This document shows positions 48,814 through 64,000 of a stretch of DNA of 64,000 bases, one piece after another. How positions within the stretch are numbered: position 1 is the first letter of the stretch; every line of letters begins with the position of its first letter. The stretch lies in the IMG/VR virus record IMGVR_UViG_3300042463_000890, positions 1-64,000 of that record. One strand, written 5' to 3'. A program made the translations under genes and the position numbers. Origin of the DNA: a virus. The notes below the pieces were generated by a model. It ran no database searches and had not been told where the DNA came from. It saw only the letters and a program-made list of their open reading frames with translations.

Positions 48814-49404
48814 CTATATTGGTGTAGGTGTTAAAGTTGGGGTCGGTGTAGGATTAAATGTTGTGGTTGTAGTAGTTGTAGGATTAAACGTAGTTGTTGT
48901 TGTAGTATAATTAGGTGTTGGTGTTGGTTGAGGGCAAGTAGGACAACTTGGACATGGAGAAGTTGTTGTTGTGGTAGTGTAAGGTCCGTTTATACAACAA
49001 GGGAATTCTGACACATAACAACTGTCATACGGTAAATCATCAGCAATAAAAGATTCTTGAATATTAATATACAGTTTTTCCCTTATTGGTAAGATTAAAA
49101 CCCCGTCATCATTTCTTAACATAAATTGACCTTCATATCGGCCAACTTTATTTGTATCTCTATTTTGAAATTGATAGTAAATATAGTATTCAGGTTCTGC
49201 ATTTGGGTCTATAAAAGTTTTCTCTACAAACCCTGCAGGTCTTGATGTTACTTTAGATACACCTGTTGCAGTGTCAACCATAGAAAAGAAAATTGCGGAT
49301 AATTCTATGGTTTTCATAAAATTATCGAAATCACTTCTACCGTCTTTAACTACTTGTAATTTTAATAAAGGAAGAGTAGCATTTTTTTTAATGAAAAATT
49401 CCAT
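48814..49404 (-). CDS. Putative virion protein: BppU-like N-terminal domain with a Cys/Thr/Pro mucin-like tail
   Basis: FFIKKNATLPLL...YQFQNRDTNKVGRYEGQF...ILP resembles the BppU N-terminal Ig-like domain. The C-terminus is TTTTTTSPCPSCPTCPQPTPTPNYTTTTTTFNPTTTTTTTFNPTPTPT. Confidence 0.6.
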   Translation of the reverse strand: MEFFIKKNATLPLLKLQVVKDGRSDFDNFMKTIELSAIFFSMVDTATGVSKVTSRPAGFVEKTFIDPNAEPEYYIYYQFQNRDTNKVGRYEGQFMLRNDDGVLILPIREKLYINIQESFIADDLPYDSCYVSEFPCCINGPYTTTTTTSPCPSCPTCPQPTPTPNYTTTTTTFNPTTTTTTTFNPTPTPTLTPTPI

Positions 49405-49452
49405 CCAATCTATTTTATTCTATAAATACTTTACTTGTATAAAATAAACAGA

Positions 49453-51159
49453 TTAACTTTCTTTTCTTAATTTTCCATCATAGTGGTCAAACCTATTATG
49501 TTCAGTTGGTGTCATTAATAACAAACCTGAGGATATATGACCTTTAATTGTTTCTTGATACATATGACTCATCCAAGTCTGCTCAAATGGGTGTCCCCAC
49601 TTTGTTTCTAAAAACATTTTTTTGTTTCCTTCTTTTGAAACTATTTGAGGCCAATTACAATAATATACCTCACCTAAAGCATAAGGAACATCTTTATGTA
49701 TTTTAATTTTTGTAAACACAGTATTTGGAGCCTCAGGGTCTAATCCTAATTGTGGGAGTGTTGGTTTTTCGGGCCAATGGGTTTCTCTAAAATTTTGAGG
49801 TACGTTATACCAACTCCATTGTGTTGAATTGTTACCAAAAAATTCAGTAAAATTTAATTTAAGAAAATCTAATTCTTCTTTTTTTATGATTTCTAAAGAT
49901 TTGTTAAATAAATCATTAACATATCTGTTAAATCCATTTTTACAAGTCTCCCCTGGTTTTGGGTAAAAAAACATGTCATCTTCAAAAAATAACATATACT
50001 CTAATTTAGTTTCGTCAAAATGTTCTGCAATCCATTGTCTTCCACCACAGATTCCTAAGTTGTCCATTTTTATATGGGTGAATCCGTAATCGTCACAAAG
50101 TTTTTTATATTCAGGAGTTGTTGATAAATCTGTAGAGTTATTTAACAAATATTTTTCTGTCTTATCTAAAAAATCAGAATCATATTCTTCCATTGACTTA
50201 ATTAAAGTTCTAAACTGATTTGGACTATTAAATGTTAGAACATAAAGTCCTACACCTTTATTGTCAGATTGTTTTAGAACATTTATTTTTTTAAGTATAT
50301 TTTTCGAATCTTTAATTTTTTGACCTTGAGTCTTCACAACTAAAGAATCATTTTTCAAATCCTCAAAAAATTTACCAACTAATCCGTTACTTTCAATTTC
50401 AAAATAATTTATTAAATTATGATTTTTATATAACATTATTGAAAATACAGATTCTTCAGTCCCCATATAACCTTTAGAAAGAGTATCTTTTAAAGATGAA
50501 TAATATATTGTATTAATATCACTAATACTATCTTTAGGCCCTCCAAAGAACCCTCCCCTAGGAATTAATTTTACATCGGATGATGCCCATTCATTAATTT
50601 TTGGATAACTAAATCCGTGTATTTCATTATTTGCATTATACGGAAAACAAACAAATGAAAACTTATTTATATATTTTGGTAATTTTTCTAAAACTTTATC
50701 ATGTGTGAAATATCCTGAATGAACTGTGTTTGTCAACCCAGCATCAATCCAAAACATGTATTTTGAATTAAACCTATCTAATAACTTCGCATCATGTAAT
50801 AGAAATATCTTTGACATAACTAACGGGTTATACATTTCTAATTGAGCTTGTGTAGAATCTTTTAACCAACTCGCCTGATTAAACCAATTAGGGTCTTTTC
50901 TTATTTTTTGTATTAAAGGATAAAATTCGTTTGTTTTAAACCAAGTTTGACTTCTAACTATAAACTGAGTATTTTCTTTTTTTCTATGTTGCCAAACAAA
51001 TGATTCTAATTCTGGTTCACCAAAAATAATCATTTTATTTTCGACCTTTAGAAGTTGGGAAAATTTGTCTTTATAATGGTCAAATGTTCTAGACCATCCT
51101 TCTTTAAGATTAACTCTTCCTATATCCCATAATCCTGTTACTAAAGTAATTTCAGACAT
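49453..51159 (-). CDS. Two-domain glycosyltransferase: HtrL/YibB-like plus GT-A (GT2-like)
   Basis: ITLVTGLWDIGR...RTFDHY, FWIDAG, GGFFGG and GTEES (HtrL-like). The second domain has LYVLTFN, NLGICGGRQ and FFEDD. Confidence 0.75.
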   Translation of the reverse strand: MSEITLVTGLWDIGRVNLKEGWSRTFDHYKDKFSQLLKVENKMIIFGEPELESFVWQHRKKENTQFIVRSQTWFKTNEFYPLIQKIRKDPNWFNQASWLKDSTQAQLEMYNPLVMSKIFLLHDAKLLDRFNSKYMFWIDAGLTNTVHSGYFTHDKVLEKLPKYINKFSFVCFPYNANNEIHGFSYPKINEWASSDVKLIPRGGFFGGPKDSISDINTIYYSSLKDTLSKGYMGTEESVFSIMLYKNHNLINYFEIESNGLVGKFFEDLKNDSLVVKTQGQKIKDSKNILKKINVLKQSDNKGVGLYVLTFNSPNQFRTLIKSMEEYDSDFLDKTEKYLLNNSTDLSTTPEYKKLCDDYGFTHIKMDNLGICGGRQWIAEHFDETKLEYMLFFEDDMFFYPKPGETCKNGFNRYVNDLFNKSLEIIKKEELDFLKLNFTEFFGNNSTQWSWYNVPQNFRETHWPEKPTLPQLGLDPEAPNTVFTKIKIHKDVPYALGEVYYCNWPQIVSKEGNKKMFLETKWGHPFEQTWMSHMYQETIKGHISSGLLLMTPTEHNRFDHYDGKLRKES

Positions 51160-51788
51160 TATTTTTTAATTTTACAAACCCAAACAACTTTGGAGAATTT
51201 ATCTTGGTTATAGAAGCTTAAATTGTTTTCAGATGATGATTTTGAAATGTCATCCTCCACAATTTCACACCAATTCCATATTTTATTATTAATTTCTTTT
51301 TCAAATGTAGACTTATCAATACAATAATCATGAGCCATAATAAAGTCACCTGACTTAATATACTTAGACAATATGTTAAACTCACCTATCTTCCATCCAC
51401 CGTCACATAAAACTAATGTAACACCTTCTGATGAGACATAATTTTTTATTTCTAATGGTATATCTTTATAATCGCCAAATATATCCTCAATCCTAACATC
51501 AATTCCTCTTTTAATCATATCATTATACCAAGGTCTTGCGCTAATATCAAAAGTTAATATATTGGTATCTAAATTTAATTCATCAATCGTTGTCTTTAAA
51601 AACATTGTAAATCCACCTAACGCGGTACCAATTTCTAAAATCCTCTTAGGTTTGACTTCTTTTATAAAATCATAAAATACTTGATATACATCGTGATGTT
51701 GTTGAGCGGAATGACCATCAAACGATGATAAACTGTCGTTCGCTAATAAATTTGTTTTTTTAGTAATTCTGTTTTTAATATTTTCCAT
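51159..51788 (-). CDS. Class I SAM-dependent methyltransferase (CmcI / Methyltransf_24-like)
   Basis: KPKRILEIGTALGG, LTFDI, LCDGG and GDFIMAHD motifs. Confidence 0.8.
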   Translation of the reverse strand: MENIKNRITKKTNLLANDSLSSFDGHSAQQHHDVYQVFYDFIKEVKPKRILEIGTALGGFTMFLKTTIDELNLDTNILTFDISARPWYNDMIKRGIDVRIEDIFGDYKDIPLEIKNYVSSEGVTLVLCDGGWKIGEFNILSKYIKSGDFIMAHDYCIDKSTFEKEINNKIWNWCEIVEDDISKSSSENNLSFYNQDKFSKVVWVCKIKK

Positions 51789-51801
51789 GTTTAAAATATA
51801 A

Positions 51802-52509
51802 TTAAAATCTTATATGTGTAACCCCTGTATTTGCTACGAAACTAAAAAAATCTTTAAGTTCGTACATTTTTTTCCAATCCATGTTCATATTAGCATCTAC
51901 TGCTGACATACCAATTTCAACCCCTTCAGCAAATGCCCAAATATCATTTTTAACCCCAAATTCATTTCTTTCTTTCCATTTGTTGACAAATGTTTTAAGT
52001 TTTGGGCTATTTTTAAAAACTAAAAATTGTTCATTAACTACTTGTGCTTTATCATAACGAGTGGTGTTTAACAGTCCGTAGGGTTCTACTTTGTGTCTCC
52101 AAAAACATTTGTGTGGGTCCCTTTTTGTGTCTCCTATCGAATGAGGTCTTTCGTAGATAAAATCTAAATTACTGTTTTTAAATGATTCTAAAAATGAAAG
52201 TAATTTACTTTCATTATAACCATTGAACAAATCCCAATCTGCATCAAAAAATAATACAAAATCAAAATCTAATTTTAATGATTCCATTATTGGGATGTAT
52301 TTTAAATTGTAATTAAAATAATTTTTAATAAATTTTACTTCATTATTGTTAAATTTTACAAATGATGTGTTTTTAACTTCTTTATGGTTCCCGTCAGTTA
52401 TTATTAATACTTTATGAGTAATTGATTTTTCATTTAATTTTTCAGCAAATTTAATGGCTGATTTTAAATATTTTTCACCTATAGCAATAGTACAATACAC
52501 ATATTTCAT
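51802..52509 (-). CDS. GT-A glycosyltransferase (GT6-like N-terminus)
   Basis: YCTIAIGEKY start, LIITD and the DxD motif FFDAD. Confidence 0.65.
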   Translation of the reverse strand: MKYVYCTIAIGEKYLKSAIKFAEKLNEKSITHKVLIITDGNHKEVKNTSFVKFNNNEVKFIKNYFNYNLKYIPIMESLKLDFDFVLFFDADWDLFNGYNESKLLSFLESFKNSNLDFIYERPHSIGDTKRDPHKCFWRHKVEPYGLLNTTRYDKAQVVNEQFLVFKNSPKLKTFVNKWKERNEFGVKNDIWAFAEGVEIGMSAVDANMNMDWKKMYELKDFFSFVANTGVTHIRF

Positions 52510-53198
52510 AATTTGTCCGCAATTTTAATTGTGTCTTCATTAAATGGACCATTATCGTGTACGATGATTGGGTCATAACCATTAATTTTTACTTTATTAT
52601 TATTCAATTCTATATTTTTTTTGGAGTTAAGTGAACTCATGAAAAATTCACAATTATAGTCTATTAAAATATCATCATGAAGGAGATACTCAATAGACCA
52701 TTTACCTTGGTCATCAATACCTGTGTCGTAAACTTCTTTGATTATCTTTTCTAAATGAAAAATAATTTTATCAACGTATCCAAAATATGTCCCAGAATTT
52801 AAGTATTTGTATTCTGATGTAATATTTTTTTTGTTATAAAGATGTGTAAATGAATTTGGTGGCCATAGACATTTCTCGGCCCCCATAATTATTGAACAAT
52901 TTTTTTCTTTGAACTTATCCACAATATCTTTAGGTGAGGAGTAAAAATTTGTGTCGGTCGCATCTAAAAATAATATGTAATCATAGTTGTTAATTATATT
53001 ATTTTTAATATACTCCAATAACATTACCACTTTATAAAAGTAAAGTTTGTCATAGTATGAATCACCTTTAAATAAGTTATTATGTCTTATAACATGTATA
53101 TCGTTTTTGTCAAAAAAATTTAATGCGTTTTTGTAAAATAGTGGGGTATAACTATTTGGGTAATCAAACAACACTGTTATTAATGCGATGTTTTTCAT
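52506..53198 (-). CDS. PLOD/LH3-like glycosyltransferase domain protein
   Basis: ILFLDATD, IIMGAEKCLWP, YKYLNSGTYFG, DDQ and PIIVHDNG match the procollagen lysyl hydroxylase GT-domain pattern. Confidence 0.8.
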   Translation of the reverse strand: MKNIALITVLFDYPNSYTPLFYKNALNFFDKNDIHVIRHNNLFKGDSYYDKLYFYKVVMLLEYIKNNIINNYDYILFLDATDTNFYSSPKDIVDKFKEKNCSIIMGAEKCLWPPNSFTHLYNKKNITSEYKYLNSGTYFGYVDKIIFHLEKIIKEVYDTGIDDQGKWSIEYLLHDDILIDYNCEFFMSSLNSKKNIELNNNKVKINGYDPIIVHDNGPFNEDTIKIADKL

Positions 53199-54439
53199 AA
53201 GTTACCGACTAATCTTTCGCACCAACCTTTAGAAACTGAGTGAGGCCAAACAACCCAATACTTAGGTTTTTCTTTGGTGTTGAACTCTCTCCATATTTTA
53301 CAGTACTTATCAGGGTCAGTCATCATTCTATTTATTTCATTAATATCGGCATCCCTTCTGAAGATAGTTTCATCTTTTTCATCGTGGAAAGCAACAACCC
53401 AAAAGTCATAATCTTTTTCAGGTACTTGACTAAAACTAACATCAATACAATGTTTAAAAATTGACAAGAAACTATTTTCCCATTCCTCATCAGTTTCATA
53501 TATTGTTGGATTTGGCGGATAATTTTTGTCGATAGTATACTGTTGTACCGCTCTTTTTGAAAAACTTAATCCTGCATATATTTCATACTCTTTTAAGGTT
53601 CTCTCAGTTCCGAAACCGTATTTTCCGAAATCAATCGAGGTCTCACCGTCCATCCCAAAAAGTTGTCTATTCTTTTTATGTGAACTATCATTTTTCTTAA
53701 ACCATTCTTTATCGTCATCCCACTGTTTGGTTCTATTTTTTCTTGTGTATTCGTGCCAAATAACTGTTTTGTGTGGATGGAATAAATCATATCCGTGAGT
53801 GTAAGCTCTAACCGCGATTGAAATTTCTTCTCCATGGAAATAAAACTCAGGGTCGTGTTGAACCTCTTTTGCAAATTTACCTAAAGTAAAACAAAAATGT
53901 GCGGAATAAAATCTTGCAGGAACAGGTTCAGTTAAGTTTTCCCACCCAGGAATTGTTTCAGGTAAAAAGAAAACCGCTCCTTCAGGAATAAATCTGTCAA
54001 AAGCCATTCTCCATGGTTCTTTAACTCTACCTTGTGGGTCATTATCAGGGTCAAATGATGAAACGTATGATGTTAATAAAGGTTTTTCAAAACCTTTATC
54101 TTGTAATTGTTTAACCATATTGATTAAGGTTTCATCCCAATCTTTGTCAAACCTCATATGAGAGTCTAACTGTAATGTATAGTCTTCATCTTGGTACAAT
54201 TGTTGAACTTTATTTCTTGCCCAACATACTCCTTTAGATTCTGAATACAATACGTTTTCTACTCTAAATCTTTCGTCAGATTCAAATTCAGTTAATTCGT
54301 CAAATTTATCATCAGGGTGATATTGTCTACAAATACCAATTCTTAAATTTTCAGGATGTTTTGCATTTTCCAACATGTCTTTTAATGTTGGTATTAATTG
54401 CGGGTCTCGATAAGACGCAATCTGAACAAATATTGTCAT
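53195..54439 (-). CDS. GT60 / Gnt1-like polypeptide alpha-GlcNAc transferase
   Basis: TIFVQIASYRDP, GVCWAR, YTLQLDSHMRFDKDWD, FHGEEISIAVRAYTHGYDLFHP and WHEY match the Skp1-Hyp GlcNAc-T / Pfam GlcNAc family. Confidence 0.85.
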   Translation of the reverse strand: MTIFVQIASYRDPQLIPTLKDMLENAKHPENLRIGICRQYHPDDKFDELTEFESDERFRVENVLYSESKGVCWARNKVQQLYQDEDYTLQLDSHMRFDKDWDETLINMVKQLQDKGFEKPLLTSYVSSFDPDNDPQGRVKEPWRMAFDRFIPEGAVFFLPETIPGWENLTEPVPARFYSAHFCFTLGKFAKEVQHDPEFYFHGEEISIAVRAYTHGYDLFHPHKTVIWHEYTRKNRTKQWDDDKEWFKKNDSSHKKNRQLFGMDGETSIDFGKYGFGTERTLKEYEIYAGLSFSKRAVQQYTIDKNYPPNPTIYETDEEWENSFLSIFKHCIDVSFSQVPEKDYDFWVVAFHDEKDETIFRRDADINEINRMMTDPDKYCKIWREFNTKEKPKYWVVWPHSVSKGWCERLVGNL

Positions 54440-54487
54440 ATTACTTTTTTATCAAAAAATAAATAATGACATAAAAAAATAAATGTT

Positions 54488-56359
54488 TTATATTCCTCCT
54501 CCATCAGATATTGACCATAATTTTGTTCCTGTAAGATAAGTTCTACTTGCTCCTGCCGTCGCAATTGTGTACACAGAGTTTCCACCATTAAATGTTACAC
54601 TTGATTGCAATGAACCTCCTAATGACGCCCATCCGTTAAGTAAAGAATTATAATTAGGTGTTGATAATGTCACACCGTTAAACATATTAAACATTAGTAC
54701 AACTGAAGAAACATTCCAAGAACCTAAATCTTGGTCAAATAATGGGGCGTTGTTAAACATATTATCCATGTTTGTGACATTAGAAACATCCCAGTTTCCT
54801 AATGGTTGGTTAAATGATGTTGCGGTGTTAAACATATTAGACATGTCTGTAACACCTGAAACATTCCATACGTCTATTGGTTTGTTAAAATTCGCCGTGT
54901 TATTGAACATTGAGGACATATTTGTAACATTAGAAACATCCCAATTATCTAGTGGTTGATTAAAGTTTAATGCCGAGTTAAACATACTAGCCATGTTTGT
55001 AACACCTGAAACATTCCAAGTATTTAAATCTTGATTGAAACTTGATGTTATCTGGAACATCCCTGACATGGATGTTACAGATGATACATCCCAACTACTA
55101 ATTGATTGGTTAAACATTGTACACTGAGAGAACATACTTGACATGGATGTTACAGATGATACATCCCAAGAATCTATTCCTAACGACCCTCCATTATTAA
55201 ATATGGTACAACTTGCAAACATACCAAACATGGTTGTAACATTTGATACAACCCAAGAACTTAAATCTTGGTCAAATGACGAACATCCGCCAAAAGTACT
55301 AAACATACTTGTAATATTTGATACGTCCCAAGAACTAACGTTACTGATTGTAGTTATAGATGTACATCCCCCTAAAAATCTAGCTAAATGGGTAACGCCA
55401 CTTAAATTTAAAACATCACTTACTGAATTTAATGTTAGGTTAATACATTGAGCAAAGGCGGAGTTACTTATAGTTGACGGACCTAAACTAAAACATCCCC
55501 ATTGTAATATTCCTGTTATTTTTTCTAAATCCCCTGTCTGTTGGAAACTCCATCCTTCTAATAAACCTGTAATAGTTATTGTGTAATCACCAGAAGATGA
55601 GTAAGTATGAGTAGTTTCAGGTTGATTCCATAATGTTATAGTGTCCGTAGGACCCCCATCCCCCCAATCAACAATAAAGTTATATGTTCCTAAGGAAACT
55701 AATGGTAATTTTACTTGATTTGATAACGTTGAGCCTGGAGAAGTATTTGTTGTATTCCAAGTACTTATAAACGCCAAATTAGGTGGTGTTTGAGTTGGTG
55801 TTGGAGTAATGGTAGGGGTTATTGTTTGTGTAGGTGTTATAGTTGGCGTCAAAGTTGGCGTTTGAGTAGGGGTTGCAGATGGTGGTGGAGGTATGGGGTT
55901 GCAAGCCCCTTCGGTACATGGTAATGATATGTCAAACACAACACCATCTTCCGCAAATGGTGAATTACCACAAACATATATTGTTGTTAACGCAGGAACA
56001 GAACCATAAAAATAATTTCCGTCACACTGAATGTACTCTATATTAACGGATGAAGGAGATATGTTTTCAAACTGAATACATCTACACTCTGAAGGAGTTG
56101 TTGTTGGAGTTAAAGTCGGTGTTGGGGTCGGTGTTGCGGTAGGGCAATTATATAAATGTAAAAATTCGCACCCATTAGAATCAATCATTTTAACCATTAC
56201 AGATGAAACAATATCTAACGGATACACCAAGGTATATAAAAAATTTGGCGGAAAACTAATTCCTGACCCCGCTAAAACACAATATGTGAGAGTATAATCA
56301 CATACGTAGATATCATAAGGTCCTGTACCTGTCGCTCCTGTTATTTCTATTTGATACAT
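54488..56359 (-). CDS. Putative virion surface/adhesin protein: Thr/Pro linkers, PKD-like domain and BspA/DUF285-type repeats
   Basis: PTPTPT tracts; VDWGDG...THTYSSSGDYTITITG (PKD); about eight WDVSNVTNMxxMF repeats. Confidence 0.8.
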   Translation of the reverse strand: MYQIEITGATGTGPYDIYVCDYTLTYCVLAGSGISFPPNFLYTLVYPLDIVSSVMVKMIDSNGCEFLHLYNCPTATPTPTPTLTPTTTPSECRCIQFENISPSSVNIEYIQCDGNYFYGSVPALTTIYVCGNSPFAEDGVVFDISLPCTEGACNPIPPPPSATPTQTPTLTPTITPTQTITPTITPTPTQTPPNLAFISTWNTTNTSPGSTLSNQVKLPLVSLGTYNFIVDWGDGGPTDTITLWNQPETTHTYSSSGDYTITITGLLEGWSFQQTGDLEKITGILQWGCFSLGPSTISNSAFAQCINLTLNSVSDVLNLSGVTHLARFLGGCTSITTISNVSSWDVSNITSMFSTFGGCSSFDQDLSSWVVSNVTTMFGMFASCTIFNNGGSLGIDSWDVSSVTSMSSMFSQCTMFNQSISSWDVSSVTSMSGMFQITSSFNQDLNTWNVSGVTNMASMFNSALNFNQPLDNWDVSNVTNMSSMFNNTANFNKPIDVWNVSGVTDMSNMFNTATSFNQPLGNWDVSNVTNMDNMFNNAPLFDQDLGSWNVSSVVLMFNMFNGVTLSTPNYNSLLNGWASLGGSLQSSVTFNGGNSVYTIATAGASRTYLTGTKLWSISDGGGI

Positions 56360-56360
56360 A

Positions 56361-57494
56361 TTATGGTCCTGGTTGAGCGAAAGGTGGGTAATTTAGTTTT
56401 AGATTATACGGTATTGGTAAAATACCAGGGCTTCCCGCATAAAATGAATGGGTAAATGTGGTTATAATAGGTGAAGTACATGGGTTACCTCCAAAATTAC
56501 CATCTGTTTGATAAATAAAAGTACCAACAAAATTTTCCCTTAAATGGAAATACACCGTATTACCAACAGGTATGTTTATATTACCAAATGAAATAAGTGT
56601 AGAACATTGTTGTAGTGTTTGAGTACTTAGTAAATTCCAAGTCGCACCTGTCGGAAATGGTTGTGTACCATCAAAATACGGTAATATTGCGTAATATAAC
56701 CTGTACGATTGAGCTCCGTATAATGGGTCTAATGTACCTTGAATATTTAAAATGGCAACTTCAGGAGTTGGGGTTAGAGTAACTGTCGGTGTTATAGTAG
56801 GTGTAATAGTATTTGTAGGGGTAACTGTTGGTGTTGACGTATTTGTAGGTGTAATAGTATTTGTAGGGGTAACTGTTGGTGTTGACGTATTTGTAGGGGT
56901 AACTGTTGGTGTTGACGTATTTGTAGGGGTAACTATTGGTGTTGACGTATTTGTAGGGGTAACTGTTGGTGTTGACGTATTTGTAGGGGTAACTGTTAGT
57001 GTAACTGTTGGTGTTGGCGTATTTTTACAATCCGTAGGAGTAGGAGTAGGTGTTTTAGTAGGAGTTGTAGTTGGTTTTACAGGTAAACATCCGCAAGGAT
57101 TTGTACAACTAACTGTAGGTGTTGGTGTATGTGTTGGTGTAACCGTATTTGTTGGGGTGATGCTTGGTGACGGGGTAAAACATGGGGTAAGTGTTGGGGT
57201 AACTGATGGGGTTGGGGTAGGTGTTGGGGTTTGAGTTTTTGTTGGGGTTAAAGTAGGTGTTGGTGTTGGAGTTGGTCTTGGTACATTCAAGTAATATACA
57301 CAGTTGTTATATAAAGTCGTTATTGTGTAAATTCCATAAATCTTTTGCGGTGGTATTAATAATCCCGCGTTAAATGTAAAAGGTAAAATATGGTCCCCCA
57401 AATTTAAAACTAATTCAGTTCCCTGTGGATTGAATAATATATTTGCAATCTCACCATCATAATTTATACTTTTTATGGTAATAATTTGTTCCAT
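56361..57494 (-). CDS. Mucin-like Thr/Pro-rich protein (377 aa)
   Basis: About 170-aa [10 protein letters not shown]-type region between two small globular domains. Confidence 0.8.
56809..57000. repeat. 30-bp coding tandem repeat ([10 protein letters not shown] unit)
   Basis: Unit GTATTTGTAGGGGTAACTGTTGGTGTTGAC at 56809, 56857, 56887, 56917 (1 mismatch), 56947 and partial 56977, with an 18-bp sub-unit inserted at 56839. Confidence 0.92.
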
Positions 57495-57497
57495 TAA

Positions 57498-60400
57498 TTA
57501 AAACTTATTTTCTATCGCTAAACAAATTTCACCTTGTTCGTTTATTAATCTTTGCATATCGGAAAAACTTATAAATGCGTAACCATTCTTACCCCATGAA
57601 CGACCCCAACTATTTTTAATTCTAAATAGTTTAGTTCTTAAATCAACACCGTTTATTACGTAAGCATGTCCACCAGCAATTCTACCACTAGCTTTAATTA
57701 AACCGTTTTTATTAGGATAGAACATACCTTGATACCAGTTGGTACCAACAACTACTGGCCCTTTAACTAAAACCGTATTTATTAAAACCGATAAATCGTA
57801 TGTCCATAGATATGACGAGATTTTTCCAGTGTTTTTCAAATATTTCGCACCTCCTCTAACAGATGTTCCATCATAATTTTCACCAACCCATTCATCTAAT
57901 CTTTGTGCTTGTTTATAAATTGTAGTTGGATTTATTATTGGTGGTACACCTCCGTGTTTTATAGGACCGTCCTCAATCCAATGAGCCCAAGCATACCCAA
58001 CACATTGAGGAGTATTTCCTTGATTACCCCACCATTCCTCTGAATCCCAATATTTTGAGGTTAATGTTGTCGGCCTAAATTGTAACCTATTTTCAATTAA
58101 AAACAATTTATCTCTTTTGTCTTCAATATAAATTCTACCTAACGGTTGTGGGTCAATATTAGTCGTTGTTGTAGTTGTAGGATTAAATGTTGTAGTTGTT
58201 GTAGTTGTAGGATTAAATGTTGTAGTTGTTGTAGTTGCCGTTGGTGTCGGGGTATCTCCTGTAGTGTATCCAAAATCATCAGGTAAACATTCTAAAGTAG
58301 TACAATCAGGACAATCAGGGTTAAACATCCTAAACGTATTTTTTAATAACAAGAAATTATGTTTAACCTCAGGTGCAGATAAAGGAGTTACGTACATTCT
58401 AAACTGAGATATCGCACCTTCAAAAGTACCTGCAAAATTTTGTTCAATTAATATATTTGTTTTTAATCCATTAAATGTTGTTCCTGTTAAATCGTTTGTT
58501 GGGAAATTTTCAGGGTCTTGCTGATACGGGCCAAAATATAAAATCTCCTCTCTTGTTACCAATGTTAATATATTAGTACTAGATGGATTTGTTATTACAG
58601 GAGTATCATCCCATTTAGCAATAATAGTACCCGTTTCATTTGTTAAGTTTGATAAAATCTGAGGTTCACCAAAACAATCTAAATAAGTTATATCAGTTGT
58701 AACATCTCCTATTGAATAATTCCATACAGAACATGCTCTAAATGTTAAGTTTTCTCTTAACCCCTGAGTACCCCCGCCCCAAGACACATTAAATGGTACT
58801 CCTACTTGTTTTTCTTTATCGGTGTTTAAAGCTCTTGGTATAATCTCTTCAAAATCTTCAATAGTCCAAAATAACTTACCATTTATATAAATTTTAAGTC
58901 GACCTTTTCTATATTTTTTTTCTAATAACCATTTTTCATTAAGATTAACGATTTCTATTTTTTCGGCCTCTTCCGCTTCAGGACGAGTATATGGAACAGT
59001 AATTAAAGATGAAGTATTGTTAGCCAGTGATTGTAGGTATAACTTTTTTGTTATATCACCTAACCCACCTCGATACCATAAATCACAATCATCGAACCAA
59101 GTGTATCTTTCCCAAACCGCATCGACTTGGAACCAGTGTTCTAAGTCTAACCACGCAGGGTTTATTTTAAAACAATCAGGATAAATTGGTGGTGAACAAT
59201 AATCTAAAACAGTGTAACCTGTTGTATATGTTACACCTGTTGTAGAACAAGAACCTGTTGTTTCACAATCTCCTGTAAACAACAATACTCTTACCCCTAT
59301 TTGAGGATTTTTAGGTTCTCCACATAATCTAAAGGACAACGCATTAGATAATGAATCGTATAATGGGTCTTTTTCACAAGTATCTTCTATAGAAGTAAAA
59401 CCAGTGTTAGGCGGACATGTATCACAATCGTTACAAGTTTCACATTTAGTACAAGAAGGTGTACAAACAGGAGGTAATATACAACCTTCTGATATTGGTG
59501 TAGGAGATGGTGTTGGTGTTGGAGTTGGAAAAATAACCGACTCACATTTATGAGTTTGACATTCCCACCCACAAGATTCACATTTCACCTCACCACAACC
59601 GCATCCACATGAAATACTTTTACTTGGGTTACCGTTACACTTATCACAACCATAATTAACATGTGGGTCATGAACACCACCTTCAGACCTTGGTGGGTAA
59701 ACAAATATACAACGACTATCTGTTATAGTTTTATTACAACAAGCACAAGTGGTTAATCCTGTTAAAGGTGTAGTTATACGAGTGTATCCCGTAAAACAAT
59801 TTGGGGTCCCGTCAGCGTGATGGTAGAATTTATTTTCCGCTCTTGTACCAAAATAAAAAAATGTATTTTTGTTTTTTGGGTATATTTTGTTTAGAGTGGT
59901 CTCACCAGGACCTGGAAAAAATTCATCCTCTAATCTTGGTTTGAGTAACATTTCAACAGACCAACCCTTGTTCATCCTTTCGGGGAAGATATTATAGTCG
60001 TAACCAAATAACCTATAAAATCCTTGATAAAATCCTCCATATAATTCATGGTACCTACCCTCAAAAGGACTAAATTTACTTACAACTTCATACAATACGA
60101 CATCAGGAAATCCTGAAAATCTAACTATATCAAGAGCGGTATTTGCGGTTACTTGAAATAATTTTAGTCTTCTATCAAAACTTAATCTATCAAATTTTTC
60201 TGAATTACTTAATAAACCTTGAGTAAAGGTTATTGTTTGACCTGTCATATACTCAACTAATCCATTATCAACACCTGTTAATCCAATGTCACAAGAAGTT
60301 GACGATGTAAAACATTTTAAATCTAAATCTTTAGGATTATAATAATTTTGGGAGACAAAAATATTATCTCTATTATAATTTTTATAAGTTAAAGTTAAAT

Positions 60401-60599
60401 TCTGAGCAGTTTCAGGGTTATTAATATCAAAATAAAAAGGTAATCTATTACCATAAGTTTGCGCAATCAAATAAGGTGAAAATACCACCTCTTGATTAAA
60501 ATCCATTTCATCACTAGTCAATGACATGTCATGAGCGTCTAAAGACAACTTAGGAAACAAATTTGGTCTTACATATTGATTTATATTTTGACTCGCCAT
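57498..60599 (-). CDS. Multidomain putative virion protein: LamG/ConA-like, Cys-rich, Thr-rich linker, C-terminal papain-like (C1) cysteine protease
   Basis: GWSVEMLL, LKIYINGKL and FEGAISQFRMYVTPLS (LamG-like). Catalytic motifs NQGNTPQCVGYA (Q, C), GGHA (H) and IKNSWG (N). Confidence 0.8.
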   Translation of the reverse strand: MASQNINQYVRPNLFPKLSLDAHDMSLTSDEMDFNQEVVFSPYLIAQTYGNRLPFYFDINNPETAQNLTLTYKNYNRDNIFVSQNYYNPKDLDLKCFTSSTSCDIGLTGVDNGLVEYMTGQTITFTQGLLSNSEKFDRLSFDRRLKLFQVTANTALDIVRFSGFPDVVLYEVVSKFSPFEGRYHELYGGFYQGFYRLFGYDYNIFPERMNKGWSVEMLLKPRLEDEFFPGPGETTLNKIYPKNKNTFFYFGTRAENKFYHHADGTPNCFTGYTRITTPLTGLTTCACCNKTITDSRCIFVYPPRSEGGVHDPHVNYGCDKCNGNPSKSISCGCGCGEVKCESCGWECQTHKCESVIFPTPTPTPSPTPISEGCILPPVCTPSCTKCETCNDCDTCPPNTGFTSIEDTCEKDPLYDSLSNALSFRLCGEPKNPQIGVRVLLFTGDCETTGSCSTTGVTYTTGYTVLDYCSPPIYPDCFKINPAWLDLEHWFQVDAVWERYTWFDDCDLWYRGGLGDITKKLYLQSLANNTSSLITVPYTRPEAEEAEKIEIVNLNEKWLLEKKYRKGRLKIYINGKLFWTIEDFEEIIPRALNTDKEKQVGVPFNVSWGGGTQGLRENLTFRACSVWNYSIGDVTTDITYLDCFGEPQILSNLTNETGTIIAKWDDTPVITNPSSTNILTLVTREEILYFGPYQQDPENFPTNDLTGTTFNGLKTNILIEQNFAGTFEGAISQFRMYVTPLSAPEVKHNFLLLKNTFRMFNPDCPDCTTLECLPDDFGYTTGDTPTPTATTTTTTFNPTTTTTTTFNPTTTTTTNIDPQPLGRIYIEDKRDKLFLIENRLQFRPTTLTSKYWDSEEWWGNQGNTPQCVGYAWAHWIEDGPIKHGGVPPIINPTTIYKQAQRLDEWVGENYDGTSVRGGAKYLKNTGKISSYLWTYDLSVLINTVLVKGPVVVGTNWYQGMFYPNKNGLIKASGRIAGGHAYVINGVDLRTKLFRIKNSWGRSWGKNGYAFISFSDMQRLINEQGEICLAIENKF
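58171..58237. repeat. Perfect 30-bp tandem duplication encoding TTTTTTTFNP
   Basis: GTAGTTGTAGGATTAAATGTTGTAGTTGTT at 58171 and 58201. A related pair lies at about 48847-48906. Confidence 0.9.
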
Positions 60600-60609
60600 C
60601 TTTTTTATG

Positions 60610-60636
60610 ATAAATACACCAAAACGAAGTATTTAT
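60610..60636. promoter_or_regulatory. Back-to-back TATTTAT putative late promoters
   Basis: TATTTAT on the minus strand at 60616-60610 (before the 1033-aa gene) and on the plus strand at 60630-60636 (before the 277-aa gene). The same motif precedes most structural operons. Confidence 0.6.
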
Positions 60637-63240: not shown

Positions 63241-63270
63241 AACCCCTCTACATGAGGGGTTTTTTATTTT
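63241..63270 (+). terminator. Intrinsic terminator
   Basis: AACCCCTC-TACAT-GAGGGGTT followed by TTTTATTTT. Confidence 0.85.
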
Positions 63271-63328: not shown

Positions 63329-64000
63329 ATGTCTAAAAAAATTAATGTTTTAATACTACCATCGGATAAAACTGGTGTTGGTAAATTTCGCTCTGTAGAC
63401 CCTCATATTATGCTACAAAACATGTATCCTGATGATTTTCATGTGGATATTGATTATGAACCTAGATTGAATGACCCTAACTTTTGGAAAAAGTACCAAA
63501 TTGTACATGTACATAGAAATATTGGTAATAATTATGACCAAACACCTCATTTAATTAGAACTCTAAAACAAATGGGTATTGTTGTTATTGTGGATATCGA
63601 TGATTATTGGTTACCAACTAAAGAACACCCAATTCATTCAATTATCCTACACGATAAAATACATGAAAAAATTATTACAAATTTAAAAGAGGCTAGTTAT
63701 GTTACAACTACAACAAAAATATTTGCCGATGAAATTCGTAAATTTAACAAAAATGTTGTGGTTTTACCAAACGCAATTAACCCAGATGAACCACAATTTA
63801 AACAAGCAACAGAAGATTCAGATAAAATAAGAGTCGGTTGGTTAGGCGGTTCCTCTCACTTATACGATTTAAAACTTTTAGAAGGGTTTATTTCAAAAAA
63901 TGGTAGTGATATAAATAATAATGTACAATATGTTATTTGTGGATTTGACACACGAGGTTCTGTGACTGAAATTGACCAAAAAACAGGACAAAGAAAACAA
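63329..64000 (+). CDS. GT-B (GT4-like) glycosyltransferase, partial (runs off the window end)
   Basis: MSKKINVLILPSDKTGVGKFRSVDPH...VIVDIDDYW...ASYVTTTTKIFADEIRKFNKNVVVLPNAIN...IRVGWLGGSSHLYDL. Not in the ORF track. Confidence 0.8.
   Translation, partial: MSKKINVLILPSDKTGVGKFRSVDPHIMLQNMYPDDFHVDIDYEPRLNDPNFWKKYQIVHVHRNIGNNYDQTPHLIRTLKQMGIVVIVDIDDYWLPTKEHPIHSIILHDKIHEKIITNLKEASYVTTTTKIFADEIRKFNKNVVVLPNAINPDEPQFKQATEDSDKIRVGWLGGSSHLYDLKLLEGFISKNGSDINNNVQYVICGFDTRGSVTEIDQKTGQRKQ

Follow-up and report, generated by a model that had tools for sequence, protein, structure and literature searches.

A GT60-led glycosyltransferase cassette flanked by Thr/Pro-tract genes: a candidate virion protein O-glycosylation system in uncultured aquatic jumbo phages

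The cassette and its enzymes

The stretch analyzed here, referred to as the window, was the first 64 kb of the 86.6-kb IMG/VR contig IMGVR_UViG_3300042463_000890. At 48814-60599 it carries a cassette of five enzyme genes, led by a GT60-family glycosyltransferase, among genes for proteins with Thr/Pro tracts. The cassette is examined here as a candidate phage-encoded system for O-glycosylation of the phage's own proteins. The contig represents ~30% of a genome by CheckV estimate, implying a jumbo phage of roughly 290 kb. The GC content of the window is ~32%. Encoded in it are a contractile-tail sheath, a baseplate wedge, a class I ribonucleotide reductase, a DnaB-type helicase, a UvsX-like recombinase and a family-B DNA polymerase (PolB). 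When the whole region was compared with isolate phages by megablast no match was obtained, and therefore no close cultured relative was identified. The best matches of a sheath-based isolate search were distant, at ~30% identity, and belonged to an uncultured 484-kb phage and Microcystis phage Mel-JY01.

Nine open reading frames (ORFs) of the cassette region were confirmed at 48814-60599, all on the minus strand. The five enzyme genes are coupled, with one nucleotide shared at 51159, a 13-nt gap between 51788 and 51802, and 4-nt overlaps at 52506-52509 and 53195-53198. Four Thr/Pro-tract genes flank them on both sides and on the same strand. This arrangement had been described in an earlier annotation made by a model from the letters and ORF translations alone (the sequence-only reading), and it was confirmed. 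No convincing intrinsic terminator was found on the minus strand from 60599 to 48814.

The first enzyme gene (53195-54439) encodes a 414-aa protein assigned to GT60 by Pfam, PHROG and conservation. It matched PF11397 ("GlcNAc") with an E-value of 1e-75 and 255.9 bits against a cut-off of 21, covering profile positions 1-44 and 96-351 of 352, and it matched phrog_24687 with an E-value of 1.8e-173. Residues D92 and H94 of a QLDSH motif were invariant among 37 homologues of 37-51% identity and may be the metal ligands of a GT-A Asp-x-His/Asp motif. A C-terminal extension of ~110 residues follows the Pfam domain. Neither phmmer nor a profile search of the PDB returned a solved structure. We know of no characterized phage or bacterial member of GT60. 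PF11397 is the Pfam family holding the CAZy GT60 polypeptide N-acetylglucosamine (GlcNAc) transferases, among which TcOGNT1 makes GlcNAc-alpha-O-Thr on mucin-like proteins of Trypanosoma cruzi (PMC9472816). By analogy with these enzymes the 414-aa protein is proposed as the initiating polypeptide N-acetylhexosamine (HexNAc) transferase of the cassette. Metagenomic proteins of 1100-2461 aa with two to four tandem GT60 domains were also seen.

The second gene (52506-53198) encodes a 230-aa protein with a PLOD-type glycosyltransferase (GT) domain, which matched PF25342 (GT_PLOD) with an E-value of 2.5e-18 and 66.6 bits against a cut-off of 27. Its closest solved relative was mimivirus R699 (9.5e-16), followed by human LH3 (1.5e-7). 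R699 is a collagen galactosyl-hydroxylysine glucosyltransferase and extends a protein-linked sugar (PMC9546862, PMC12279948).

The third gene (51802-52509) encodes a GT-A glycosyltransferase of 235 aa. No Pfam family was matched at E<=0.1 and no PDB sequence at E<=10. Its AlphaFold (AF2) model had a mean confidence score (pLDDT) of 90.5. Essentially all of the top ~50 PDB rows returned by Foldseek for this model were GT6 enzymes (BoGT6a, bovine a3GalT, human GTA/GTB), with E-values of 2e-7 to 5e-6 and TM-scores of 0.5-0.6 (0.60 for BoGT6a). A DxD motif (D89, D91) was invariant in the family. The protein is termed GT6-like on the basis of its modeled fold, and not as a GT6 member by sequence.

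The fourth gene (51159-51788) encodes a predicted S-adenosylmethionine (SAM)-dependent sugar O-methyltransferase of 209 aa, of the CmcI/rhamnosyl-O-methyltransferase type. The match was to PF04989 (RMNT_CmcI), with an E-value of 6.4e-8 and 33 bits against a cut-off of 23.2.

The last enzyme gene (49453-51159) closes the cassette and encodes a fusion protein of 568 aa. Residues 2-252 form an HtrL/WlaTC-family domain, matching PF09612 (HtrL_YibB) with an E-value of 4.4e-17 and 63 bits against a cut-off of 24.1. The match of the fusion to TIGR02192 (2.6e-22, 79.8 bits) lay under the NCBIfam equivalog cut-off of 264.9, and the protein is therefore an HtrL family member but not an orthologue of E. 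coli YibB. The C-terminal half is probably a GT-A domain, judged from the GT2-like motifs TFNSP, NNSTD and EDD and a weak match to phrog_842. An Atlas match to this half was taken as a lead only, and a profile search of the PDB with the C-terminal domain returned no matches.

The families named in the sequence-only reading were borne out for the GT60, PLOD-type, methyltransferase and HtrL sequences and, at the level of fold, for the GT6-like protein. In the fusion it was the HtrL half that held up, while the GT-A half stands on motifs and weak leads. No transmembrane segments or signal peptides were predicted in the cassette enzymes or in the Thr/Pro-tract proteins, and all of the cassette enzymes are predicted to be soluble.

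Thr/Pro-tract proteins and the upstream motif

Thr/Pro tracts were present in 7 of the 72 ORFs of the contig. Four of these ORFs flank the cassette enzymes and the remaining three encode the sheath and two large tail/baseplate proteins. No tract was found in the replication genes of the contig.

The ORF directly upstream of the GT60 gene (54488-56359) encodes a probable adhesin or fiber of 623 aa with a DUF285 match (2.6e-84) and a weak PKD match. A conserved N-terminal domain of ~72 aa is followed by a Pro/Thr linker, a Cys domain, two further Pro/Thr linkers, a PKD-like domain and DUF285 (BspA-like) repeats. The family defined by its N-terminal domain had 36 members ranging in size from 170 to 2641 aa, with the tract at ~73.

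The next ORF (56361-57494) encodes a 377-aa protein with a Thr/Pro tract and repeats and is the best candidate acceptor. It consists of a conserved N-terminal domain of ~70 aa, a tract of ~175 aa with decapeptide repeats and a C-terminal domain of ~130 aa. Thr and Pro make up 67% of the 175 residues at 71-245. The tract is partly encoded by a 30-bp repeat at 56857-57002 (4.9 copies, 97% identity), and 30-bp tandem repeats overall had identities of 97-100%. In sequence the tract is like a mucin-type (Pro/Thr/Ser, PTS) domain, a long tandem-repeat region rich in these residues. In the 19-member family of this protein the first tract began at ~71.

The outermost ORF (57498-60599) encodes a modular 1033-aa protein with a C-terminal papain-type C1 peptidase (Peptidase_C1, 3.6e-7; phrog_16701, 1.6e-55). 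A conserved N-terminal part of ~355 aa is followed by a Cys-rich region, a Pro/Thr linker (357-369), a middle part, a poly-Thr/FNP linker (782-813) and the peptidase. The middle part had an Atlas match to Laminin_G_3, a lead only, and is possibly a ConA-like lectin. In the family of its N-terminal part the tract had a fixed position at ~356. The peptidase occupies the C-terminal 210 aa (57498-58200) at the end of a fiber-like protein, and ORF382 of Xanthomonas phage XacN1 is also a C1 peptidase. It could be a virion-borne protease directed against a proteinaceous host surface layer, and glycosylated linkers would then shield the phage's own proteins.

On the other side of the enzyme genes a 196-aa protein (48814-49404) combines an Ig-like, BppU_N-like N-terminal domain of ~140 aa with a 55-aa Thr/Pro tail. 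The N-terminal domain was modeled as an Ig-like sandwich (AF2 pLDDT 87), and it had no Pfam matches and none by phmmer or profile search of the PDB. The top VIA structural rows were TP901-1 BppU 4v96 (Z 8.1), the 80alpha baseplate (Z 8.0) and BppU 3uh8 (Z 7.5), scores barely above a generic Ig-fold background of ~7. The NF5 baseplate was also among the rows. BFVD rows included a BppU domain protein, a minor tail protein and a baseplate component. In relatives the C-terminal modules joined to this anchor vary, and the C1 peptidase is one of them: at 171256-172359 of the complete relative G001 an anchor of the 196-aa type is fused to the peptidase that belongs to the 1033-aa protein in the window. 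A 30-bp repeat coding for TTTTTTFNP is common to the 196-aa gene (48847-48906) and the 1033-aa gene (58165-58237). Because this repeat is shared and the peptidase sits on different anchors, the linkers seem to be recombination joints for module shuffling.

The Thr/Pro proteins fall into four families with conserved N-terminal domains of ~140, 72, 70 or 355 residues and a first tract at a fixed junction. What follows the junction varies from nothing to >2500 residues and includes DUF285/BspA-like repeats, PKD domains and papain-type peptidases. A conserved N-terminal anchor, a tract at a fixed junction and a variable C-terminus are the architecture of phage fibers and receptor-binding proteins. 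This suggests that the tracts are linkers or stalks of fiber or baseplate appendages, and not parts of the capsid or of a coat over the whole virion. The sequence-only reading had proposed a mucin-like coat. Its link between the glycosyltransferases and the Thr/Pro proteins was retained but the virion-wide coat was not.

A promoter-like TATTTAT motif was found on the minus strand at 54459-54465, 26 nt upstream of the GT60 start codon. The motif occurred within 50 nt upstream of 18 of 71 genes, compared to 0.9 expected (~20-fold), with a spacing of 11-46 nt. It also lies 24 nt upstream of the 196-aa gene (49428-49434 region) and 17 nt upstream of the 1033-aa gene (60616-60622 region), and it precedes sheath and baseplate genes as it does these three. 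Its presence before the cassette and structural genes was as the sequence-only reading had it, but the motif is not specific to structural genes, since the DnaB and superoxide dismutase (SOD) genes have it too. It was absent upstream of PolB and of a second glycan island described below. TATTTAT(A) recalls the T4 late promoter TATAAATA. A sigma-70 scan was uninformative (104 sites compared to 83 expected).

Conservation, co-occurrence and interpretation

The GT60 gene recurred in 369 IMG/VR contigs, and >7000 GT60 protein clusters at 90% identity were counted among metagenomic proteins. The best 80 of the 369 contigs, at 74-93% identity, were taken as the set of related loci. The GT60-bearing relatives are a large clade of uncultured aquatic jumbo phages. 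Gene order in the 80 loci was Thr/Pro-tract proteins, GT60, a variable island, the HtrL fusion, a protein of the 196-aa family and PolB. GT60 was present in all 80, the HtrL fusion in 75 and the 196-aa family in 75. The methyltransferase was found in 15 loci, the GT6-like enzyme in 9 by tblastn (its protein cluster spans 20 loci) and the PLOD-type enzyme in 4. The interval between GT60 and HtrL held 0-8 ORFs from 48 protein clusters. Its Pfam families included the glycosyltransferases GT10, GT11, GT34, GT7, GT25, GT2 and RXYLT1, together with several methyltransferase families, carbamoyltransferase, acetyltransferase (GNAT), HAD, DegT, nucleotidyltransferase and epimerase. Judged across these loci, the first and last enzymes are conserved and the middle is hypervariable. 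A constant initiating enzyme with a highly variable set of extension genes is what one would expect where a glycan is exposed at the surface and selection favors its diversification. The sequence-only reading had assigned glycan extension and capping to the PLOD-like, GT6-like, methyltransferase and HtrL proteins alike. HtrL kept its place as a core enzyme, but the other three belong to the variable island only.

The position of the cassette beside PolB, with a dUTPase gene nearby, raises the possibility that the enzymes glycosylate hydroxymethylated pyrimidines of the phage DNA against restriction, in the manner of the T-even phages. The C-terminal domain of the HtrL fusion also had a weak PHROG match (E 3.8e-4) to a beta-glucosyl-hydroxymethylcytosine alpha-glucosyltransferase. 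This role is very improbable. GT60, PLOD-type and GT6 enzymes are not DNA-modifying families, and the sugar O-methyltransferase, fucosyltransferases and carbamoyltransferases fit a complex glycan and not DNA. The only thymidylate-synthase-family (PF00303) gene in five larger relatives passed the ThyA equivalog cut-off (342.8 compared to 325 bits), so only a ThyA-type enzyme was found there. No dCMP/dUMP hydroxymethylase was found in these five relatives, the window's own contig being only ~30% of a genome. Apart from this question, the thymidylate synthase of relatives G001-G005 was ~404-424 aa, suggesting an insertion of ~140 aa. In G001 and G004 the match was split over separate open frames; an intron, an intein or division of the gene might account for this.

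The Thr/Pro tracts kept close company with the cassette in the related loci. The same-strand ORF directly upstream of GT60 bore a tract in 66 of the 80. Tracts were found in 88 of 175 ORFs of the upstream block and 40 of 120 ORFs between HtrL and PolB, compared to 5 of 241 other ORFs, and in no enzyme or PolB gene. Adjacency to the cassette was common but not obligatory.

Co-occurrence was also examined in 13 phage genomes by counting a DNA pattern coding for TPTPTP, with the reversed pattern as control. The only isolates of the phage collection with a GT60 homologue were the Xanthomonas phages XacN1 and Xoo-sp13 and the Stenotrophomonas phages CM1 and RAS14. The pattern was found 44 and 43 times in the GT60-positive aquatic relatives G001 and G002, respectively, 29 times in XacN1, 26 times in Xoo-sp13 and 19 times in RAS14. 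It was not found in any of eight large myoviruses lacking GT60. Among the eight are two further jumbo phages of Xanthomonas as well as RsoM2USA, which by PolB is closest to the XacN1 group. The reversed pattern gave 0-1 matches in the five GT60-positive phages. The positives form two lineages that are distant from each other (~50% GT60 identity, GC contents of 32 and 49%). An association of GT60 with Thr/Pro-rich genes in relatives, which the sequence-only reading had set as a test of its proposal, was therefore found both in the related loci and in the 13 genomes.

An experimental hint comes from XacN1. Its authors proposed in 2018 that the virion is glycosylated by the phage's own glycosyltransferases, one of them ORF334, and purified virions contained at least two Schiff (periodic acid-Schiff, PAS)-positive proteins (Fig. 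S4 of PMC5852040). ORF334 was identified here as the GT60 orthologue. Six adjacent genes of XacN1 annotated as hypothetical (ORF232-ORF237, AP018399 124048-133104) encode proteins of 401-746 aa and hold many of its TPTPTP tracts. Their products are candidates for the PAS-positive virion proteins.

The XacN1 result bears on a second alternative, in which the cassette glycosylates virion proteins at other sites (capsid, sheath or folded fiber domains, as in chloroviruses and mycobacteriophages) and the tracts are plain spacers. Pro/Thr linkers can serve as extended spacers without sugar. The PAS-positive bands were not assigned to proteins, and the tracts of core tail proteins are not conserved, the sheath of G001 being without one. 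Against this, the precedent for GT60 is Thr in mucin-like repeats (PMC9472816), and GT60 co-occurs with Thr/Pro tracts specifically, down to the gene directly upstream of it in most of the related loci. Modification at such other sites is considered quite unlikely.

GT60 homologues were also widespread in bacteria (at least 582 loci). The HtrL fusion was found in 22 of 80 bacterial loci examined, including Saprospiraceae and Gemmatimonadota metagenome-assembled genomes (MAGs). Thr/Pro-tract ORFs were weakly enriched near bacterial GT60 genes (9 of 361 near compared to 3 of 594 far, p 0.013). Contigs binned in GTDB as Saprospiraceae, Lewinellaceae, Bacteroidia, Chitinophagia and Cytophagaceae carried GT60 at 57-80% identity, mostly with the HtrL fusion directly after it. 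Some short Bacteroidota-binned GT60 contigs may be mis-binned phage; one contig of 611 kb and 62% GC looks chromosomal. These contigs may hint at a member of the Bacteroidota as host or gene donor.

Just beyond the cassette region a second, larger glycan-biosynthesis island starts on the plus strand at 63329, running to the window end (64000) and on to ~77373 of the contig. It was delimited from ORFs and Pfam matches. Its genes encode a possible GT-B (406 aa, no Pfam match), a cytidylyltransferase, a GT2_5+GT2 fusion, a DegT fragment, three further GT2 proteins, a PglD-like and a second hexapeptide acyltransferase, a CmcI-type methyltransferase, BKACE and WbqC. A 3'-5' exonuclease, a dUTPase and PhoH are interspersed. 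A hairpin at 63241-63261 (perfect 8-bp GC-rich stem, T-runs on both strands), resembling a bidirectional terminator, separates small plus-strand genes from the island. The products of the island might supply the GT60 pathway, or their target might be host glycans.

In a third alternative the glycosyltransferases would remodel a host surface glycan (lipopolysaccharide (LPS) O-antigen or core, capsule, S-layer), blocking superinfection or trapping of progeny, and the Thr/Pro tracts would be unglycosylated linkers. Iyer et al. assigned such a role to the polymorphic glycosyltransferase clusters of jumbo cyanophages (PMC7824862). The LPS context of the HtrL family fits it, the second island with its O-antigen-type genes (WbqC, PglD-like, DegT, GT2) fits it especially well, and most bacterial GT60 loci had no Thr/Pro-tract neighbor. 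Set against this, no characterized GT60 acts on a lipid-linked acceptor (PMC9472816), and the cassette encodes no membrane protein. Searches of the contig itself and of four larger relatives, of which two are at least 91% complete, gave nothing above cut-off for PF02397 (Bac_transf), PF00953 (Glycos_transf_4) or PF04932 (Wzy_C/ligase), so phosphoglycosyltransferase and ligase/polymerase genes were lacking from the complete relatives. Host lipid-carrier enzymes could still serve the glycosyltransferases. Remodeling of the host surface also leaves unexplained the TPTPTP pattern in five of five GT60-positive and none of eight GT60-negative phages, including phages of the same host genus, and the glycoproteins of the XacN1 virion. 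It is judged unlikely.

The reading preferred here is a phage-encoded, cytoplasmic and sequential O-glycosylation of the Thr/Pro tracts, which on comparative grounds is probable. Prolyl 4-hydroxylase (PF13640) was not matched in the five larger relatives. A hydroxyproline acceptor of the Skp1 type was considered and is unlikely, and Thr is a plausible acceptor because this hydroxylase was not found. Direct glycosylation of Thr in the cytoplasm is in keeping with soluble enzymes and with relatives in which genes for a lipid carrier, DNA hydroxymethylation or prolyl hydroxylation were looked for and not found. In this scheme the GT60 enzyme (53195-54439) would move the first HexNAc from a UDP-sugar directly onto Thr. 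Its targets would be the tracts of the products of 57498-60599, 56361-57494, 54488-56359 and 48814-49404 and of the three tail proteins. The HtrL/GT-A fusion (49453-51159) would add the next conserved sugar or sugars and the strain-variable middle enzymes, here the PLOD-type glycosyltransferase, the GT6-like glycosyltransferase and the sugar O-methyltransferase, would finish the glycan. The tracts would connect a conserved N-terminal domain that anchors in the virion with a variable C-terminal module for binding or catalysis. Glycosylation may benefit the phage by stiffening these linkers, guarding them against proteases and giving the particle a strain-specific glycan surface.

Several points weigh against glycosylation of the Thr/Pro tracts. 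The donor and acceptor of the phage GT60 are extrapolated from protist enzymes, and we infer both the sugar on the tracts and the virion location of the Thr/Pro proteins from gene content and protein architecture. The fold similarity of the 196-aa anchor to BppU_N is marginal. The TATTTAT motif that the cassette shares with tail genes also precedes DnaB and SOD. In G001 the homologues of the 377-aa and 1033-aa proteins lie ~30 kb away from the cassette. The co-occurrence test has only two independent positive lineages, and in bacteria a Thr/Pro-tract ORF lay within 3 kb of GT60 in only 8 of 61 loci. HtrL/YibB and WlaTC are known from LPS and lipooligosaccharide (LOS) loci. The XacN1 paper did not name GT60, the HtrL partner or Thr/Pro acceptors, and it left its PAS bands without protein assignments (PMC5852040).

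A wider generalization is put forward tentatively, with somewhat less than even confidence. A two-enzyme core, a soluble GT60 and an HtrL/GT-A fusion, found in bacteria and in two jumbo-phage lineages, may start cytoplasmic mucin-type O-glycosylation of the Thr/Pro linkers of virion appendages. A eukaryote-like island (fucosyl-, galactosyl- and xylosyl-type glycosyltransferases with methyl, carbamoyl and acetyl modification) would then make the glycan strain-specific, for particle stability or host interaction. If so, protein glycosylation of a kind not yet described would be widespread in a group that ranks among the most abundant aquatic jumbo phages.

A literature search returned no paper describing a GT60-initiated pathway in phages; where GT60 was mentioned at all, it was as an entry in a list of viral auxiliary genes or from a giant algal virus. 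To this extent the sequence-only reading, which knew of no such pathway in a tailed phage, stood, but the authors of XacN1 had already proposed that ORF334 glycosylates virions (PMC5852040). Virion glycosylation of phages is itself known. What would be new is GT60, its HtrL partner and Thr/Pro acceptors as a virion glycosylation system. Mycobacteriophages and giant eukaryotic viruses have been shown to glycosylate their virions with enzymes of their own, and among phages of Gram-negative hosts there is only the hint from XacN1. If correct, the proposal would mean that the appendage linkers of a highly abundant aquatic jumbo-phage clade bear a GT60-started, strain-variable mucin-type glycan, the first substrate context for the GT60 family in a prokaryotic virus. 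The clade would also offer soluble glycosyltransferases that probably act on peptides, along with unusual glycosyltransferase families of eukaryotic type. A new variable would be added to phage stability, host range and the particle-surface chemistry of lakes and oceans.

Comparison with known systems

O-glycosylated Pro/Thr linkers join the domains of bacterial and fungal cellulases, where the sugar protects from proteolysis and extends the linker. Cellulases are secreted and glycosylated by host pathways, whereas the Thr/Pro proteins of the window lack signal peptides and would be modified by phage-encoded enzymes in the cytoplasm.

Giant viruses offer another likeness, in that mimivirus (fibrils; collagen R699/L230) and chloroviruses (Vp54) encode multi-enzyme machinery for their own structural proteins. 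Sugar-modifying genes (aminotransferase, acetyltransferase, methyltransferase) are likewise present in the contig of the window. The hosts of these viruses are eukaryotic, unlike that of the window phage, and the acceptors are collagen hydroxylysine or carry atypical N-glycans; lysyl or prolyl hydroxylase was not found here.

Mycobacteriophages glycosylate their virions with other glycosyltransferase families, in actinobacterial hosts and on capsid and tail-tube subunits. To our knowledge their system has neither GT60 nor a hypervariable island of eukaryote-like glycosyltransferase families. Its acceptors differ from those proposed for the window phage in not being Thr/Pro linkers of appendages. 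Mycobacteriophage virion glycosylation was reportedly described by Freeman et al. in Cell Host Microbe in 2023. As it is cited in PMC12582341 and PMC10568470, glycosyltransferases encoded by these phages act within the cytoplasm of the bacterium on virion proteins of the phage itself.

The protist enzymes TcOGNT1 and Skp1 Gnt1 belong to the same Pfam family as the phage GT60 and match it over its full length, and the candidate acceptors of the phage are likewise Thr/Pro-rich and mucin-like. Skp1 Gnt1 of Dictyostelium is soluble and cytoplasmic. The phage GT60 is predicted to resemble it in both respects, unlike TcOGNT1, which is a Golgi enzyme (PMC9472816). The likeness to Skp1 Gnt1 probably does not extend to the hydroxyproline acceptor, as no prolyl hydroxylase was found in the relatives.

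The nearest comparison is with the cultured XacN1 group. In XacN1, Xoo-sp13 and RAS14 the operon runs from GT60 (XacN1 ORF334) through a carbamoyltransferase and one or two ORFs to the HtrL fusion (XacN1 ORF330). In Stenotrophomonas phage CM1 the GT60 and HtrL fusion genes lie on one strand with the same spacing. The GT60 proteins are orthologous to that of the window (48-52% identity over 99% of length) and the HtrL/GT-A fusions share 41-43% identity with that of the window, ORF330 matching at 43% over 99% of length. Both groups have GT60 first, modifiers between and HtrL last, with PolB nearby and many TPTPTP tracts. They differ in lineage, GC content and host, and in the middle of the operon, which in the XacN1 group is a carbamoyltransferase and two ORFs and not the PLOD-like, GT6-like and methyltransferase genes of the window. 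XacN1, Xoo-sp13, CM1 and RAS14 are in culture with the same core operon, and glycosylation of the Thr/Pro tracts is therefore directly testable in these phages.

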